A DNA stretch of 64,000 bases from Escherichia coli (GCF_001677475.2 NZ_CP012497.1); one strand, 5' to 3'; shown: positions 4,242-10,056, counted from the first letter of the stretch. The notes: generated by a model not told the origin, from the sequence alone. Translations and numbers: made by a program.

Positions 4242-4317
4242 TGGTGGCCCCTACCGGACTTGAACCGGTGACCGTGCGATTATGAGTCGCCAGCTCTAAC
4301 CACTGAGCTAAAGGGCC
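4242..4317 (-). tRNA. trnI: tRNA with CAU anticodon (Ile2/lysidine-type-like, or Met)
   Basis: Reverse complement folds as a cloverleaf GGCCCTT..GCTCAGTGGTTAGAGC..CTCATAA..GGTTCAAGTCCGG..AGGGGCCACCA; close to the E. coli ileX sequence as recalled; CCA encoded. Confidence 0.8.
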
Positions 4318-4428: not shown

Positions 4429-4592
4429 CACTGATCCTTCGAGGCTGGTTTAAATATCGGCCATACCAATGTTACAGCTACTGCTACCAACGCCCCGTCG
4501 GATAAAACCGACAGGATTGTGCTGGTGAAATCCACCAGCACAGATAGCACGAGAAAAACCAAAGCCAGAATTAGACGTGCTTTTATAACCAT
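4428..4592 (-). CDS. small membrane protein (54 aa)
   Basis: Hand-translated MVIKARLILALVFLVLSVLVDFTSTILSVLSDGALVAVAVTLVWPIFKPASKDQ; start overlaps the TerB-like stop (TGATG), suggesting translational coupling. Confidence 0.4.
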   Translation of the reverse strand: MVIKARLILALVFLVLSVLVDFTSTILSVLSDGALVAVAVTLVWPIFKPASKDQ

Positions 4593-5017
4593 CAGATATA
4601 CTGTTCCAGTGGCAATTGAAGAGCCTGGGCAATTTTCTTCAATTGCTCCTGCTCTTCTGCCCCAATGCCATCCTGGTCAGCAATATCAATGCATAGGCAC
4701 AGAACATCTACCGCATCATTAGTTCCAGACACGTCAGCCAGTTCACGTAAAGCCTGGGCATTCGCTCGGCGCGGCGAGGCTTCATATTGAGCGCGAATAT
4801 TGGCGCTCATCTGGGCAATTTCACCGGAGAACGGCGCAAAGGCAGGAAGTGCTGCAATGGTTTTTTCCAATACTGCAATTTCTTTCGCATCGCAGGTGCC
4901 GTCAGAGTATGCAATGGAATATGCGCCCCAGACAGTCGCTTCCACCGCATCACGGTTTTCCATCTTCTTGACTCCGCCAGCCGCTTTGCGGAATTTCTTT
5001 TTGAGAATACCGAGCAT
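4592..5017 (-). CDS. TerB-like protein (P1 Tci-type)
   Basis: 141-aa ORF with TerB-domain character (AYSDGTCDAKEIAVLEKTIAALP, acidic C-terminus); position between the tRNAs and ban matches the P1 tci cluster. Confidence 0.55.
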   Translation of the reverse strand: MLGILKKKFRKAAGGVKKMENRDAVEATVWGAYSIAYSDGTCDAKEIAVLEKTIAALPAFAPFSGEIAQMSANIRAQYEASPRRANAQALRELADVSGTNDAVDVLCLCIDIADQDGIGAEEQEQLKKIAQALQLPLEQYI

Positions 5018-5193
5018 TTATTAACCTCATTACTGGTTGGGAAATAAGGTTGCGGTGCCGGGTGCCTCCCGGTGTCCTTTGGCTGGTTATCCACCGTGGA
5101 CGGGGAAATAAGGAGAAATAATGGACAGATATAACCATTTCCCCGCGTGCGCTTAGCCGCATTCACCGCAACGGAAAGAGCATTCCTGGTGGA

Positions 5194-5944
5194 CCTGTAG
5201 ATTGGGATATGAACCCGTTACAGGAGAATGCTCTTACCTGTTACGTGCTCCGTTTCGTGGAGCTAACGGCGGGTGATCGGGCCGCACCAGACTGGACTTA
5301 TTTCAGCGTTATGCTCATGCCAGAGAATCAAACTGTGATGGTCGGTGCTGAACTCCGACACAGGGTTGTAGCAAGCCCCGCAAAGCGCGCACTACTGTAG
5401 TTGCGGCACATCAGCCTGTGCATTCACCACAATGTTGAGAACACTGGTTGTCACGCTGCAACGCAACATTTATTCGTAGATTGGGATATGACCCCGTTAC
5501 GCCAGTGTTCTCAACGTTGTAGTGCCGGTTACGGTTCCGGCCAGGCCTCTTCCTCAACGGGGTGTTCTCCATACGGACTACCGTTTATTGGTCGTTCCTG
5601 CGGTTTATGTTGTGAAGCCAGATGCTTATCTTCTGGTTGCTTCAAAGAGCTGCACTTCATCACAACGGTAAGAGCACTCGATGCATTTAAGCCAAGCCCC
5701 ATAAGGGAGAATGCCCTTACCTGTTGTGTTGTGATGACCGGTGCTGATCTCCGGCTTGCGGTTATTTCAGACTCTCACGGGCGTTTAATTGCCCCGCCGA
5801 ACAGCTCTTTTCCGCAATAGCTGCAATGTCTTTCGCGCATCAGCCTGCGCATTCATCACAACGGTAAGGGTACTTCGTAGGGATTCGAACCCTCTGCCAA
5901 GCTCGGCGATCTCCGACGTCGCAAAATACCCTTACCTGTTGTGC
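5194..5944. repeat. array of short repeats and tRNA-like remnants
   Basis: Two copies of a 25-bp palindrome-flanked core GTAGATTGGGATATGA(A/C)CCCGTTAC (5194-5224, 5475-5501); motif CCTTACCTGTTGTG/CTTACCTGTTACG at 5225-5250, 5706-5738, 5921-5944 and again at 6365-6390; no convincing ORF. Confidence 0.4.
5868..5931 (-). other. tRNA-like fragment (T-arm and acceptor remnant)
   Basis: Contains GGTTCGAATCC T-loop and a D-arm-like GCGA..TCGC, but does not fold into a complete cloverleaf. Confidence 0.3.
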
Positions 5945-6020
5945 TGGTGCCGATTAACGGACTCGAACCGCTGACATCCTGCTTACAAGGCAGGCGCTCT
6001 ACCAACTGAGCTAAACCGGC
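5945..6020 (-). tRNA. trnT: tRNA-Thr (anticodon UGU)
   Basis: Reverse complement GCCGGTTTAGCTCAGTTGGTAGAGCGCCTGCCTTGTAAGCAGGATGTCAGCGGTTCGAGTCCGTTAATCGGCACCA folds as a canonical cloverleaf, CCA encoded. Confidence 0.85.
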
Positions 6021-6025
6021 ATTGG

Positions 6026-6098
6026 CGATGGTGGATGGATTTGAACCATCGACCCGTTGATTAACAGTCAACCGCTCTAACCGCTGAGCTACACCATC
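6026..6098 (-). tRNA. trnA: tRNA-Asn (anticodon GUU)
   Basis: Reverse complement GATGGTGTAGCTCAGCGGTTAGAGCGGTTGACTGTTAATCAACGGGTCGATGGTTCAAATCCATCCACCATCG folds as a cloverleaf; 5 nt from the tRNA-Thr. Confidence 0.85.
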
Positions 6099-6763
6099 AC
6101 TTGCCGGGTACGTCTCCGGCGAGGGCTTCCACCTCCGTATGCTTTTCGGCGCACCGCGCCCTGGCTGCAATTCGGTAACAGGGGATGCACAACCCTGGCT
6201 TCCAGCGTGATTAGCGCCTTCAGCATGACGGGATATACCCGTAAATTCGTGGAACTGTACCCAAAGTGCTGTTAAGCACCGCTGTTACGCTGAAAAGAAA
6301 ACGCAACAGGAAAGGACGCTGACCAACAGATGGCCCCTTCTCGTTCATCTGGTTAATCACACCAGCGCCCTTACCTGTTGTGCCTCCCCGTTCCCTAATA
6401 CACAGACGGGGACACTCTGCGGTCGATTTTTTGACGGGGGACGACTCATACCCCGTGGCATCTGGCTTCTTAGGCCGCTACCATCATCAGATCATCGTTT
6501 GCATTTACTTTAATGGTCAGTTTCTAAACCGCCGCAAAGTCGCTAACTATGACGAAAACCCTGAAAAAAACGCCCACCCGAAGATGGGCAAACTGGAAGC
6601 TCGTAACGCACTTCGGCGTTGCCACTTAGGCGCATGGTCAACCTGGCAACTCGGTGGTTTGTCTGGGAGGACTAGGCCCAGCCATGCTTACCGCCGCGCC
6701 TGTCGCGGCTAACAGCTAAATCGCTCTATAAATCACGATTCATTGAGGCGATATTACACTAAT

Positions 6764-6780
6764 AAATTTATTAGAGCAAT
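6764..6780. promoter_or_regulatory. P1 C1 repressor operator, perfect consensus match, with overlapping promoter for the tRNA-tci-ban operon
   Basis: Reverse complement is ATTGCTCTAATAAATTT (17/17 to the C1 operator consensus); just downstream of the dmt stop and upstream of the tRNAs on the minus strand. Confidence 0.7.
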
Positions 6781-6799
6781 ATACCCAAAACGTCATGAG

Positions 6800-9700
6800 C
6801 TACACCTCGAGTGTCCCCTTACAAGACACAGAACGTCTGGCAAAAAGAGGTTCCACTCTGAAGCCACTGTCATGATAAAGCTCTCTGATGTTTGGCGCGC
6901 CACTGTTAGTAATGAGAACCTTTGCACCTCGACGATGAGCATCCGTCAACAGAGACACCAGGCGTTTTTGCTCTTCAAACTTAAAGTCATGACCGGAATA
7001 GTTCGTGAATCCCTCTGTATTTGGAAGCGGTTCATACGGCGGATCGCAAAAGATGACATCTCCTTCTCCGGCAGCTTCAATCACCGCTGCAAAATCACCG
7101 CATACAAACTCAGACCGCCCTTCCGCACCGAGGAAGGCTTCCATCTCCTGTAATGGGAAATACGGAGTTTTATACTTCCCGTAACCGACATTGAACTCAC
7201 CGGCCTGGTTGTAACGCGTCAATCCGTTAAAACAATGTCGGTTCAGGAACAAAAACGCCGCTGCGCGATGTAAATCATCATAGACTTGTTTGTTAAACGC
7301 ATTCCGTACTGCCAGGTATCCTTCCTGTGTGTTGTAGTCCTGGAAGAAACGATGTGCCAGAGTGATAAGTGAATGCGCCTCGCGTTGCAGAGTCTTGTAA
7401 AAGTTAATCAGGTCAGCATTCACATCATTTAGCAGATTTTCCTGGTATCCGGCATTCATGAAGACAGCTCCGCCACCAACGAAAGGTTCAATCAGGCGCT
7501 TCCCTTCTGGCAAATAGCGAAAGATTTGTTCCAGAACACCAAATTTTCCACCAGCCCATTTGAATATGGACCGTTCGAATTCTGCCGCTGGTTTAACTTT
7601 TCGCTCTTTTGTTTCACTTCCTTCTTTCTGCCGACATACGGCCTTAGTAATCCGATCGCCAATCCAGCGCATTACTGGTATTGCCATACTATTGCCGATC
7701 GCTTTGTAACGCGGTCCGTCAGCTGCAAGCATCGCGGCCTCTTCTTCGCTTAAATCTGGATAGTGATTGCGAAGATATGCCAGTTCATCTGAATTAACTT
7801 TTTTACGCTTTTCCGTCGGGATCAACGTATGCCCATCAGGAAAACCTTGCAGCCTTTCACATTCGACAGGGGTAAGACGGCGGACAGCTACTTCTGCGTT
7901 TCTTACTTCATAGCAAACAGCTGTTGGATTTTTAGCCATTAGAGATGGTGAAGTATTCTTAGTTGCAGCATGTTGTGTACCGCTCATACGCTCAGGAAAA
8001 GCCAATGTAACAAGATGCTCATGGCTTTCTTGCTCACGTGCCCGCAATGTACCATGCCCTTCTGACCAAAAACCTGCTCCTGTGCTGCTAAAAACGGCAA
8101 GGTCAGTGGCATCTTTAAAATCTCTTGCCTTTACTGTCGATGCGGTTTCATCGTCAATATATTCCCCAAATGCCGCCATCCTGAAAGCGTTTACGGCTTT
8201 CGTCGATTTCATACCGGGTGGCATGTCAGCGTGTAGGCATGGATTTAGGCTTTCGCCACTGATTGCAGCGCCATTTGCAATAATGGCGGAAGCGATTTCC
8301 TTCTTTTTTCGGCTCGGCGCAATATTCCGGCGCACGCCTTCGAACTCAAAAAGTACCGTTGCGGGATCGAGGTCTGTTCGAGCACTTGCGACAACAAACA
8401 CGCGTCGGCGTCGTTGTGCCACTCCGAAGTATTGGGCATCAAGGATTCTCCAGGCCACCTTTCGCTGCGGTCCATAAATACAACCACACTGCGGCCACTT
8501 TGGAGCATGGCAACCGGTTTTGCCATCCCACCGCCAGAACGCGTTACTTTTTCCTGATTCAGGTCGATCACCTGGTTCAAATGGCGCATCTTCTCCAGCC
8601 AATCCGGCAAGGAAACATCCGAAGGCGTTATCTGCCGATGACAGGACTCCTGGGACATTTTCCCAGACGATAACTGTCGGTTTGAGGAAGGACTCAGACC
8701 GTTTGTCGTCAATTGCATTTGCAAGCTCCACATACTTCAAAGTTAGCGCGCCGCGTTCATCATCAAGCCCACCACGTAAGCCCGCGATACTGAATGCCTG
8801 ACAGTTATGGACCACCGCACCATTGAGGATATAGGAATGATCACCTTCGACTTCTATGTTGTATACAGTATCTAGGCCTACCGATTTAAACTCTTTGACT
8901 GTTCGTAAAAGCATTCCATGAGCCAATCTTGATTTACGTGACAATTTCTGCGGGCAGATTGTTACCTGATAATAATTCCGTTGATTTACCACGCGATCCT
9001 CGATCACTTTTTTGGGCTCAACTTCAATAAAGCTGACCGAAGAAACATAACCACAAGTCTGTGACAACCCCGCAACGCCCCAAGCAAGCGCAGGACTAAC
9101 ACTATTAATTCTAAATCCCGCTTTACCACTTGGTGTCCCATCAGTATCAAGATAGCCTTGTAAAAACACATGACGCAATGGATGCGACATCACCCATGCA
9201 GGGATACGCTTAGCATGGCTTAACTCGCCAAAATGTTCATTAAGCCAATTGGCATAACACGTATCATTCAAGGTTACTTTGATGCTCCCTCGGATTTCGC
9301 TTGCCACGGAAAATATGTTTTCTGGTATGCGGCAATGAAACTTTCTCAATTTCTGGCAATTTATGCCAAAAACAACCGCCTTCTTAGATTTACCTCTCCA
9401 TCTCCTAATATATCCATCGCCAACATAAGCGCCCGCAAGATACATAGCCTGTTCTTCAGACAAGAACCGAGAACAAATATCTGGAGATGCAATATTGAAA
9501 TTAGTTAGAGCGCACCATTGATATCCCGGCATATCACATGCTGCTCGCCATTCCGGTTCAGACAACAACTCTCTCTTAAAATATGTGCCATTTTTCCGGG
9601 TGTTTTGGGCTTTCCACCGAACAGCCAGGAAGGGATGGTCATTGGTTGTTCTTATACCTAAAGGCTGCCCAACGGCATTAAGTAACCCCGTATTAGCTAT

Positions 9701-10056
9701 TTTTGAACCAACTCTTTTTACTTGTTGTAACCGCCCGAGATGACTGACTACGTAATCGCCAGGGCAAACATCTTCTATTGGTTTATAACCATTTTTACAA
9801 AGAACCATATGCCCCGCGGTAAAACATGGTGTTCCCCGACGAGCACGTCAGGGGATTCGATTTCCCCAGCCAAGACTTTTTTGGCAAGTTTTGTCATGTC
9901 GCCAAGGTTGGCGACATGGGGCCAGCGGAGCGCAAGAACGGCAGATGGAAAAGGCTCGATTTCAGCAAACCACGCCGGACGCATACCCAACGGTTCCCAG
10001 GCAATACTCGCGGCTTCAATTCCACTGCAAACAGATCCATAGCACAGCTCTTTCAC
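6800..10056 (-). CDS. dmt: bifunctional DNA methyltransferase (C5-cytosine domain plus Dam-like N6-adenine domain), intein-containing, frame broken near 9834-9837
   Basis: C5-MTase motifs [40 protein letters not shown]; Dam motifs FVGGGAV and DPPY at the C-terminus; GTG start overlaps the hrdC stop; the N-terminal 77 codons are in a different frame, joined across a C-run. Confidence 0.85.
8804..9826 (-). mobile_element. intein with LAGLIDADG homing-endonuclease domain, inserted at the catalytic Cys of the C5-MTase
   Basis: 341-aa insertion starting CFTAGHMVL and ending ILNGAVVHN followed by Cys+1 of CQAFSIAG; LAGLIDADG-like motifs [13 protein letters not shown] and [11 protein letters not shown]. 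Confidence 0.75.

Follow-up and report, generated by a model that had tools for sequence, protein, structure and literature searches.

Hairpins cut by RNase III are found in the leader of the lambda N gene and between the cistrons of the T7 early mRNA. Leaders may also imitate tRNAs, as in the operator of E. coli thrS, which mimics the anticodon arm of tRNA-Thr and binds threonyl-tRNA synthetase, and tRNA-like RNAs are cut from longer transcripts in the case of the C4 RNA precursor of phages P1 and P7 (an RNase P substrate), the Y-RNA-like YrlA, and mascRNA. Here, we compare such systems with the interval between the genes for tRNA-Thr and the TerB-like protein TciA in the ban operon, as found in a stretch of 64,000 nucleotides from Escherichia coli (NZ_CP012497.1; hereafter the window), which represents a P1-type phage or plasmid prophage. 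The original prediction, made from the DNA of the window, described positions 5194-5944 as a degenerate repeat array with tRNA-like remnants, representing either decayed tRNA gene copies or recombination or processing sites in the operon leader. We show that two hairpins encoded on the minus strand of this interval, A and B, are members of a hairpin family that is common in temperate phages of Enterobacterales, and that the tip of the family reproduces, base for base over much of its length, the anticodon arm of the initiator tRNA. The interval is probably a transcribed, untranslated leader of the ban operon, in which putative processing hairpins would present initiator-tRNA-like tips to a host factor.

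Hairpins and modules of the ban operon leader

The ban operon is located on the minus strand of the window, and on this strand the interval is predicted to form four hairpins in the order D, C, B, and A, while a fifth, E, is placed upstream of the tRNA pair (Table 1). Hairpins D, C, B, and A alternate with two Y-shaped modules, S1 and S2, and the chain ends in an element resembling the small RNA STnc100. All five hairpins are more stable than shuffled sequences, with z-scores from -4.7 to -7.7, and their minus strands are 6-10 kcal/mol more stable than the plus strands. The predicted basal stems are 20-25 bp long and contain a conserved bulge or 1x1 loop. Nearly the whole leader from the promoter Pban to tciA, which is longer than 1.5 kb, is predicted to be base-paired, and all copies of the motifs, both in the window and at 12 related loci, have the sense-strand orientation.

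The repeats described in the original prediction correspond to parts of these hairpins. The 25-bp element GTAGATTGGGATATGA(A/C)CCCGTTAC is present in exactly two copies in the 64 kb, at 5197-5221 and 5476-5500, with 0.00 copies expected at up to three mismatches. The 14-mer CCTTACCTGTTGTG starts at 5715, 5930, and 6369, with a degenerate copy at 5232-5245 and a degenerate inverted copy at 6302-6315; four matches were obtained against 0.28 expected, and none of 100 shuffles reached four. In the predicted folds, the 25-mer is the hairpin tip and the 14-mer is a hairpin arm, the arms being CACAACAGGUAAGRG and CYCUUACC-GUUGUGAUGAA with a bulged A, that is, the 14-mer and its complement. The short inverted repeats that were thought to frame the 25-bp copies are in fact the arms of the 20-25 bp stems. 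The 14-mer copy at 5930-5943 does abut the tRNA-Thr gene, as had been stated, and both this copy and hairpin D begin two nucleotides past the CCA end of the tRNA.

The hairpins differ in their apical parts. Hairpin B has a 23-bp basal stem and a three-way junction. A resemblance to the anticodon arm of the initiator tRNA is seen in its tip, ACGGGGUCAUAUCCCAAUC (5479-5497), and in that of hairpin A, ACGGGUUCAUAUCCCAAUC (5200-5218). In hairpin D, a long basal stem is combined with an acceptor-like stem of 7 bp and a single arm, and the tip, GAGGGUUCGAAUCCCUAC (5875-5891), resembles a T arm; the hairpin carries GGUUCGAAUCC on a 4-bp stem beside the acceptor-like stem. Its copy in Enterobacter phage BUCT554 is 85% identical, with four compensatory changes in the acceptor-like stem and an unchanged tip. 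The segment with the GGTTCGAATCC T-loop (5875-5891) is not a full tRNA, in agreement with the original prediction; it was called neither by ARAGORN nor by the Rfam tRNA model, and its best matches, to mascRNA (14.9 bits) and tRNA-Sec (14.6 bits), are weak and not significant. The 5' arm of hairpin E, CACAACAGGUAAGGGC, is common to the other hairpins and corresponds to the copy of direct repeat D3 at 6367-6382. Hairpin C and module S1 together constitute a 196-bp unit that is absent from P1. The second of the small hairpins in the spacer between hairpins C and B also precedes B-type hairpins in other phages, in a recurring GCCGGAACCGTAACCGGC context.

Modules S1 and S2 each open with GUGRUGAAU and the small hairpin GCRCAGGCUGAUGYGC and close with a CCGG...CCGG hairpin followed by YCAYCAC, so that the two ends of each module can pair, and the closing stem of S1 covaries between copies. 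The STnc100-like element is placed between hairpin A and the tciA start codon, and its closing stem, UGCGGUG/CACCGCA, shows compensatory changes relative to the copy in phage 933W.

Table 1. Features of the ban operon leader and adjoining genes in the window. MFE, minimum free energy; z, z-score against shuffled sequences; R1, covariance model of the hairpin family; ORF, open reading frame.
Feature	Position	Strand	Details
Hairpin E	6300-6385	minus	MFE -40 kcal/mol, z = -4.7; R1 21.3 bits, E = 0.0013
Hairpin D	5852-5943	minus	MFE -41.4 kcal/mol, z = -5.6; 7 kcal/mol more stable than plus strand
Module S1	5729-5851	minus	closing stem GUGAUGA/UCAUCAC
S1, first hairpin	5834-5851	minus	GCGCAGGCUGAUGCGC
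S1, last hairpin	5738-5754	minus	CCGGAGAUCAGCACCGG
Hairpin C	5656-5728	minus	MFE -33.6 kcal/mol, z = -6.1; 10 kcal/mol more stable than plus strand; R1 19.7 bits, E = 0.004
Spacer	5525-5655	minus	two small predicted hairpins: GAAGCAACCAGA...UCUGGCUUC and GCCGGAACCGUAACCGGC
Hairpin B	5423-5524	minus	MFE -49 kcal/mol, z = -7.7; R1 37.9 bits, E = 1.2e-8
Module S2	5246-5422	minus	motif scan; hairpins GCACAGGCUGAUGUGC (5405-5422) and UCGGAGUUCAGCACCGA (5342-5358)
Hairpin A	5162-5245	minus	MFE -35 kcal/mol, z = -6.0; R1 45.5 bits, E = 6.1e-11
STnc100-like element	5051-5170	minus	Rfam RF02076, 39.2 bits, E = 2.4e-6; gathering score 47 not reached
ORF upl	5209-5400	plus	63 amino acids
ORF plp-like	5401-5820	plus	139 amino acids; JL22 start at 5488
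dmt	6800-9808	minus	
tRNA-Asn	6023-6098	minus	ARAGORN; Rfam tRNA model 74.5 bits
tRNA-Thr	5945-6020	minus	ARAGORN; Rfam tRNA model 72.9 bits
tciA (TerB-like)	4592-5017	minus	start codon at 5017
tRNA, anticodon CAU	4242-4317	minus	

A hairpin family with an initiator-tRNA-like tip

The covariance model R1 was built from 25 copies in lambdoid prophages only. In its seed alignment, 93.1% of the cells pair and nine pairs change on both sides; none of 500 shuffles reached the observed covariation score, and slid controls paired at 36-51%. The model finds hairpins A and B of the window significantly and hairpins C and E weakly. A scan of viral contigs with the tip motif identified at least 120 loci with stems that differ by paired changes. 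Among 93 contexts picked by the tip alone, 75.6% of the cells pair in the tip-adjacent stem, seven positions on each side, compared with 30-51% when the alignment was slid. In contigs sampled as one genome per species, strong members were found in Kosakonia, Citrobacter, Enterobacter, Mixta, Trabulsiella, Phytobacter, and Pseudescherichia, and members with unrelated stems in Pantoea, Yersinia, Raoultella, and one metagenome-assembled genome of Acidobacteriaceae. A contig labelled Chryseobacterium sp. 18061 (L278, 6192-6305) carries a hairpin copy of the enterobacterial type (89 bits), which is likely due to contamination or recent transfer. At least part of the 801-nt interval has a match in about a quarter of the complete E. 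coli genomes (1328 of 5426).

The family members head early-left or lysis operons. They are placed directly after the U-run of an intrinsic terminator, ahead of early genes of the YfdP/YfdQ-like or RdgC-like types or of a holin-endolysin cassette, and the distance to the next start codon ranges from about 45 to more than 400 nt. In E. coli prophages, near-identical C-type hairpins directly follow the terminator tR' in the space that separates Q from the holin gene, and copies of S2 that are about 95% identical are located behind the C-type hairpin in the late leaders of such prophages. Segments that are 97-98% identical to module S1 are found in lambdoid and other phages (mEp460, Stx2 phages, and IME207) and in E. 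coli chromosomes by the hundreds, in each case on the strand that is sense for the operon; in mEp460-type and Stx2 phages the copy is located in the pL leader, where it separates the repressor gene from the first early-left gene, and in the Klebsiella phage IME207 upstream of the genes for tRNA-Ser and tRNA-Arg. The prophage CPS-53 of strain K-12 has no such hairpin upstream of yfdP, and the published RNase III maps of K-12 are therefore of no help. Neither the hairpin nor the S motifs were found in the Q-stx leader of phage 933W. In scans with Rfam 15, including permissive searches of short pieces, the hairpins matched only generic long-hairpin (miRNA precursor) models and, insignificantly, tRNA-like models.

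Some further elements were observed at these loci. Another conserved leader segment (GGCAUAUGGCACAUGUGUCGU...) is located ahead of the hairpin and S modules in the unrelated phages BUCT554 (L427, 1330-1500) and mEp460 (L003, ~2650-2870). A small hairpin, GGCGG-(U)KGCAG-CCGCC, recurs just 3' of the lambdoid hairpins (L252, L283, L286, L291, and others) and resembles their variable second arm. The IsrK small RNA (Rfam RF01394, 67 bits) was identified on the plus strand of mEp460 at 4980-5056, in the Rha antirepressor region.

The tip of the lambdoid family consists of 19 nt, ACGGGNUCAUANCCCAAUC, which are fixed while the stems covary. The fixed pattern, ACGGG-N-UCAUA-N-CCCAAUC, is present in hairpins A and B and absent from C, D, and E. 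A string search of the literature identified GGGCUCAUAACCC as the anticodon stem-loop of the E. coli initiator tRNA, and only papers on tRNA-fMet matched. Compared with E. coli metZ, which encodes tRNA-fMet, the lambdoid tip contains 14 consecutive identical bases, CGGGCUCAUAACCC, of which 12 are matched by A and B. The tip shares with the initiator arm three consecutive G-C pairs, a 7-nt loop, U33, the anticodon CAU, and A37. The three G-C pairs, U33, CAU, and A37 are features that define initiator tRNAs, and the anticodon stem of the tRNA(CAU) encoded in the window does not have the three G-C pairs (GGG/CCC) of the hairpin tips.

The UCAU loop was kept in every family member also when members were retrieved by the stem rather than the loop. 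The triplet CAU was found in 78 distinct contexts, whereas each of the other triplets tested occurred in at most two distinct hairpin contexts. Patterns that forbid CAU matched at about the rate expected by chance, and the variants in a hairpin context (GAU, UAU, CGU, CCU, and AGU) were single or paired. A literature search for an initiator-tRNA mimic in prophages returned only reviews of toxin-antitoxin systems. Two other explanations of the tip were considered and rejected. Kissing of the tip with downstream start codons would require a complementarity that is inconsistent between variants, and for the core of an attP site of a tRNA-fMet integrase, the copies are located kilobases from int, have a fixed orientation, and covary.

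Recombination, the supposed tRNA remnants, and the upl and plp reading frames

The repeated arms bear on how the interval evolves. Hairpins D and C have identical 3' arms (5852-5872 and 5656-5676), and the 196 bp by which these are spaced equal the indel relative to P1. Salmonella phage SJ46 (L012, 1366-1445) contains a hybrid hairpin whose 5' arm comes from B and whose mismatched 3' arm comes from A, and a deletion must therefore have occurred between the two 25-bp tips. The tRNA pair is flanked by direct arm repeats at 6367-6382 and 5928-5943. Judged from these junctions, the repeated arms are points of homologous recombination at which units are added, deleted, and shuffled, and the earlier suggestion of recombination sites is thus right for the evolution of the region. 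It has also to be considered whether the primary role is at the DNA level, with the arms serving as module-boundary or recombination sequences that mobilize tRNA and moron cassettes and the hairpins being a by-product. The junctions described above and the shuffling of modules among P1-like, lambdoid, P22-like, and Klebsiella phages would fit such a role. However, recombination needs identity, yet unrelated stems keep the fold and the tip; the minus strand is consistently the more stable one, the orientation is fixed relative to transcription, and the genes annotated between dmt and ban include no recombinase. We therefore regard a primary role at the DNA level as quite unlikely. Sites resembling the attC sites of integrons were rejected, since RYYYAAC/GTTRRRY does not describe the arms and the annotation shows no integrase in the vicinity.

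A similarly low probability is assigned to decayed tRNA gene copies, as raised in the original prediction, which would have remained from the turnover of tRNA cassettes and would have no present function. The tRNA-like features themselves stand, as hairpins A and B contain a copy of an anticodon arm and hairpin D a T-loop consensus in its T-arm-like tip together with the 7-bp acceptor-like stem. Real tRNA genes adjoin the units, and at these positions the related phages D6 and Ro157c2YLVW have an extra gene for tRNA-Ser and tRNA-Tyr, respectively. However, no cloverleaf was detected, the Rfam tRNA model has no match in 5162-5943 at E-values up to 10, and ARAGORN calls only the three real tRNAs. 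The copies are also found at fixed positions after terminators in operons that do not contain tRNA genes, the tip is conserved while the stems change in a compensatory manner across distant hosts, and a pseudogene would not keep CAU in 78 contexts. Decayed tRNA gene copies are thus not supported, because the elements belong to a conserved and covarying hairpin family in many phages, unlike decaying pseudogenes. Two observations had been named beforehand as counting against the repeat array. One of them, a colinear alignment with the upl and plp segment of related phages, was indeed obtained, whereas the other, repeats that are absent from related genomes and give no structured RNA, is clearly contradicted by the hairpin family.

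The original prediction held that the window lacks the genes plp and upl carried by relatives of P1, but the segment is P1 upl/plp itself and contains the same plus-strand ORFs. Over 5000-6100, the identity is 99.7% to phage JL22 and 99.3% to P1, and the sole difference from P1 in the upl/plp segment is the extra 196-bp unit. Both genes are annotated in P1 (NC_005856) and JL22. Were Upl and Plp real proteins, the repeats would represent paralogous start regions, with a Shine-Dalgarno-like GGGAT and an ATG, and N-termini. We consider this very unlikely. The ATG codons of upl (5209) and of plp in JL22 (5488) are the complement of the conserved CAU of the tip, and upl and plp are for this reason probably annotation artefacts, an antisense shadow of structured RNAs. 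Covariation also ties the 5' part of the ORFs to sequence upstream of the ATG. Plp matches P1 for 93 residues, after which the 196-bp indel, whose length is not divisible by three, gives it a different C-terminus. The antisense peptides of other family members have lengths of 12-63 amino acids and different stops, and they are unrelated beyond the four residues M-S/N-P-S with which many of them begin. There is no PHROG for Plp, while Upl matches PHROG 14500. No coding sequence was placed between tRNA-Thr and the TerB-like gene by PGAP (identical plasmids) or in the annotation of P7, and no sigma-70-like promoter was found on either strand of 4900-6900.

The count of variable sites can be read in two ways. 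Counted by columns, variation is spread over codon positions 1, 2, and 3 as 3, 6, and 6, with no enrichment at third positions, whereas the cells with the minor allele number 13, 14, and 42, a third-position excess that would speak for translation and against a purely non-coding RNA. Because this count is ambiguous, a short antisense micro-peptide retains a small residual probability. Knock-down of plp, upl, trnT, and tciA by CRISPR interference left the plating of P1 unaffected (PMC10695390), and the region is thus dispensable for P1 plaques, as expected for an accessory element. These results suggest that the interval is best read as a non-coding leader of the ban operon, in line with one part of the original prediction.

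Proposed function and comparison with known systems

In such a leader, the hairpins would fold during transcription of the operon into double-stranded stems, which may act as points of endonuclease processing, most likely by RNase III. The precursor would thereby be divided into its tRNAs, small RNAs, and mRNAs, and stable apical fragments would be freed. That the hairpins punctuate a precursor is suggested by their long and near-perfect stems with a conserved irregularity, by their position between terminator and gene or between tRNA and mRNA, and by the direct contact between hairpin D and the 3' end of tRNA-Thr. Double-stranded RNA of ~20 bp or more, often with an internal loop or bulge, is typical of RNase III sites, and the predicted stems have this form. 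A host factor able to read the anticodon arm of the initiator would then encounter the tips, which could act as a decoy or operator; recognition by such a reader is suggested by the fixed tip. Candidate partners are the P site of the 30S subunit with IF3, methionyl-tRNA synthetase, or a nuclease that cuts anticodons, for example a toxin of the VapC type, and enteric VapC toxins cut tRNA-fMet in the anticodon loop. In P1, the next start codon is more than 150 nt away from one tip and more than 400 nt away from the other, which makes a simple translational operator in cis less likely and agrees better with a processed RNA that acts in trans or as a decoy.

Several observations weigh against the processed leader or against parts of it. 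Both RNase III processing and any binding partner are inferred, and the weak RNase III consensus WNAGWG...CWCUNW (PMC4357697) is matched partially, with only UAAGAG/CUCUUA being covered. The model R1 misses hairpin D and finds C and E marginally, and the assignment of all five hairpins to one family thus relies on their shared arms. Most family members are from closely related enterobacterial phages, and the covariation counts therefore include inherited changes. The test of the strand by wobble pairs gave a moderate result only, with 46 sense-strand-specific G-U cells against 26 A-C cells, 18 of which are at one position. At positions 32 and 38 of the loop, hairpins A and B do not have the bases of tRNA-fMet, and the tip stem has three G-C pairs only, flanked by an internal loop. 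Finally, S1 and S2 do not match the STnc100 model of Rfam at E-values up to 10 and resemble it in layout only.

It is highly improbable that the hairpins are generic structured filler that keeps the leader free of Rho loading sites and has no specific partner, since the length, lack of translation, and predicted pairing of the leader would be accounted for, but the near-invariant 19-nt tip, its identity with the initiator arm, and the conserved bulge in the stem would remain unexplained. Within the reading as a processed leader, a more specific and rather unlikely proposal is that the tips are phage decoys or operators of the initiator arm, freed by RNase III from highly transcribed leaders, both early and late, and bound by a VapC-type toxin or other tRNA-fMet nuclease, or by the 30S P site with IF3. 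If this were true, the decoy tips might protect or retune translation initiation during phage development, and would be an RNA counterpart to the proposed anti-defence role of the adjoining phage tRNA genes. Three other candidates were set aside. The put antiterminator RNA of HK022 is a V-shaped structure of two stems and ~70 nt just downstream of promoters (PMC9378689), whereas the hairpins follow terminators. The 3' arm segment UGCUCUUAC bears some resemblance to boxA, the site for NusB/S10, and is paired in all copies. No sequence match was obtained among the Pas small RNAs that were compared, and Pas RNAs end in terminators.

The order on the minus strand is dmt, the C1-controlled Pban region, a dicF-like segment with a terminator, hairpin E, tRNA-Asn, tRNA-Thr, the interval, tciA, tciB, tciC, tRNA(CAU), and ban. 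The tRNA-Asn and tRNA-Thr genes are genuine, with hairpins E and D on either side. The tRNA with anticodon CAU is classified as Met by ARAGORN and as Ile (Ile2) in the P1 and PGAP annotations. An intrinsic-terminator-like hairpin followed by seven U is located on the minus strand at 6564-6593, ~170 nt downstream of Pban and within the segment annotated as dicF-like in P1, and the Rfam DicF model has no match there. The dmt gene is interrupted (6800-10056, minus strand), with a 93-residue ORF at 9775-10056 that contains motif I of C5-methyltransferases, followed by an ORF of 1002 residues. The latter begins with ~335 residues that have matches to the intein-splicing, Hint, and LAGLIDADG domains; this part terminates in VVHN|CQAFS, where the catalytic PCQ motif is located, and one more G in the G-run near 9843-9846 would put both ORFs in one frame. 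The domain matches and the joined frames suggest that dmt contains an intein plus a frameshift or sequencing error.

The P1-type hairpins are similar to the RNase III sites of the lambda N leader and T7 in that they are branched, about 100 nt long, and have a long basal stem with internal irregularities (the lambda leader was folded here). Both are also parts of phage operon leaders, in which they separate the first gene from a regulatory or terminator site, or one cistron from the next. They differ from lambda in that there is no sequence similarity, R1 finding nothing in the lambda pL leader, in that lambda has no tRNA-like tip, and in that cleavage of the P1-type hairpins is so far a proposal. 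The operator of thrS is likewise a leader hairpin that copies the anticodon stem-loop of one tRNA. However, it abuts the ribosome-binding site and has a known partner, while the hairpins of the present family copy the initiator and are placed about 45 to more than 400 nt from the next start codon. Hairpin D, with its acceptor-like stem, single arm, and canonical T-loop on a long stem, is similar to C4 RNA, YrlA, and mascRNA and to tRNA mimics that undergo processing by tRNA enzymes, but its score against mascRNA is insignificant, it does not match YrlA, and it has no CCA end. The prophage small RNAs STnc100 (RF02076) and the related PasD (bioRxiv 10.64898/2026.05.13.724894) share with the present locus the prophage operon context and the linkage to a TerB gene, and S1 and S2 have in common with STnc100 a closing stem, the GGUGAAU motif, and a terminal CCGG hairpin. 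The element at 5051-5170 differs from STnc100 in scoring below the gathering threshold (39.2 versus 47) and in having no 3' terminator.

No description of the hairpin family was found in the literature that was searchable with limited access. Its reading as a conserved family with an initiator-anticodon-arm tip appears to be new, although the sequence has been public since the P1 genome. The comparison thus defines a conserved family of RNA hairpins that heads early-left and lysis operons and adjoins phage tRNA genes, and the question of what reads the fixed copy of the initiator arm in phage leaders is relevant to the presence of tRNA genes and tRNA-like RNAs in phages. Among the described counterparts, the P1 genes upl and plp consist of the same DNA at 99.3% identity. 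Here, the evidence favours a non-coding RNA on the opposite strand, which corrects a 20-year-old annotation that has been copied into many P1-like records.

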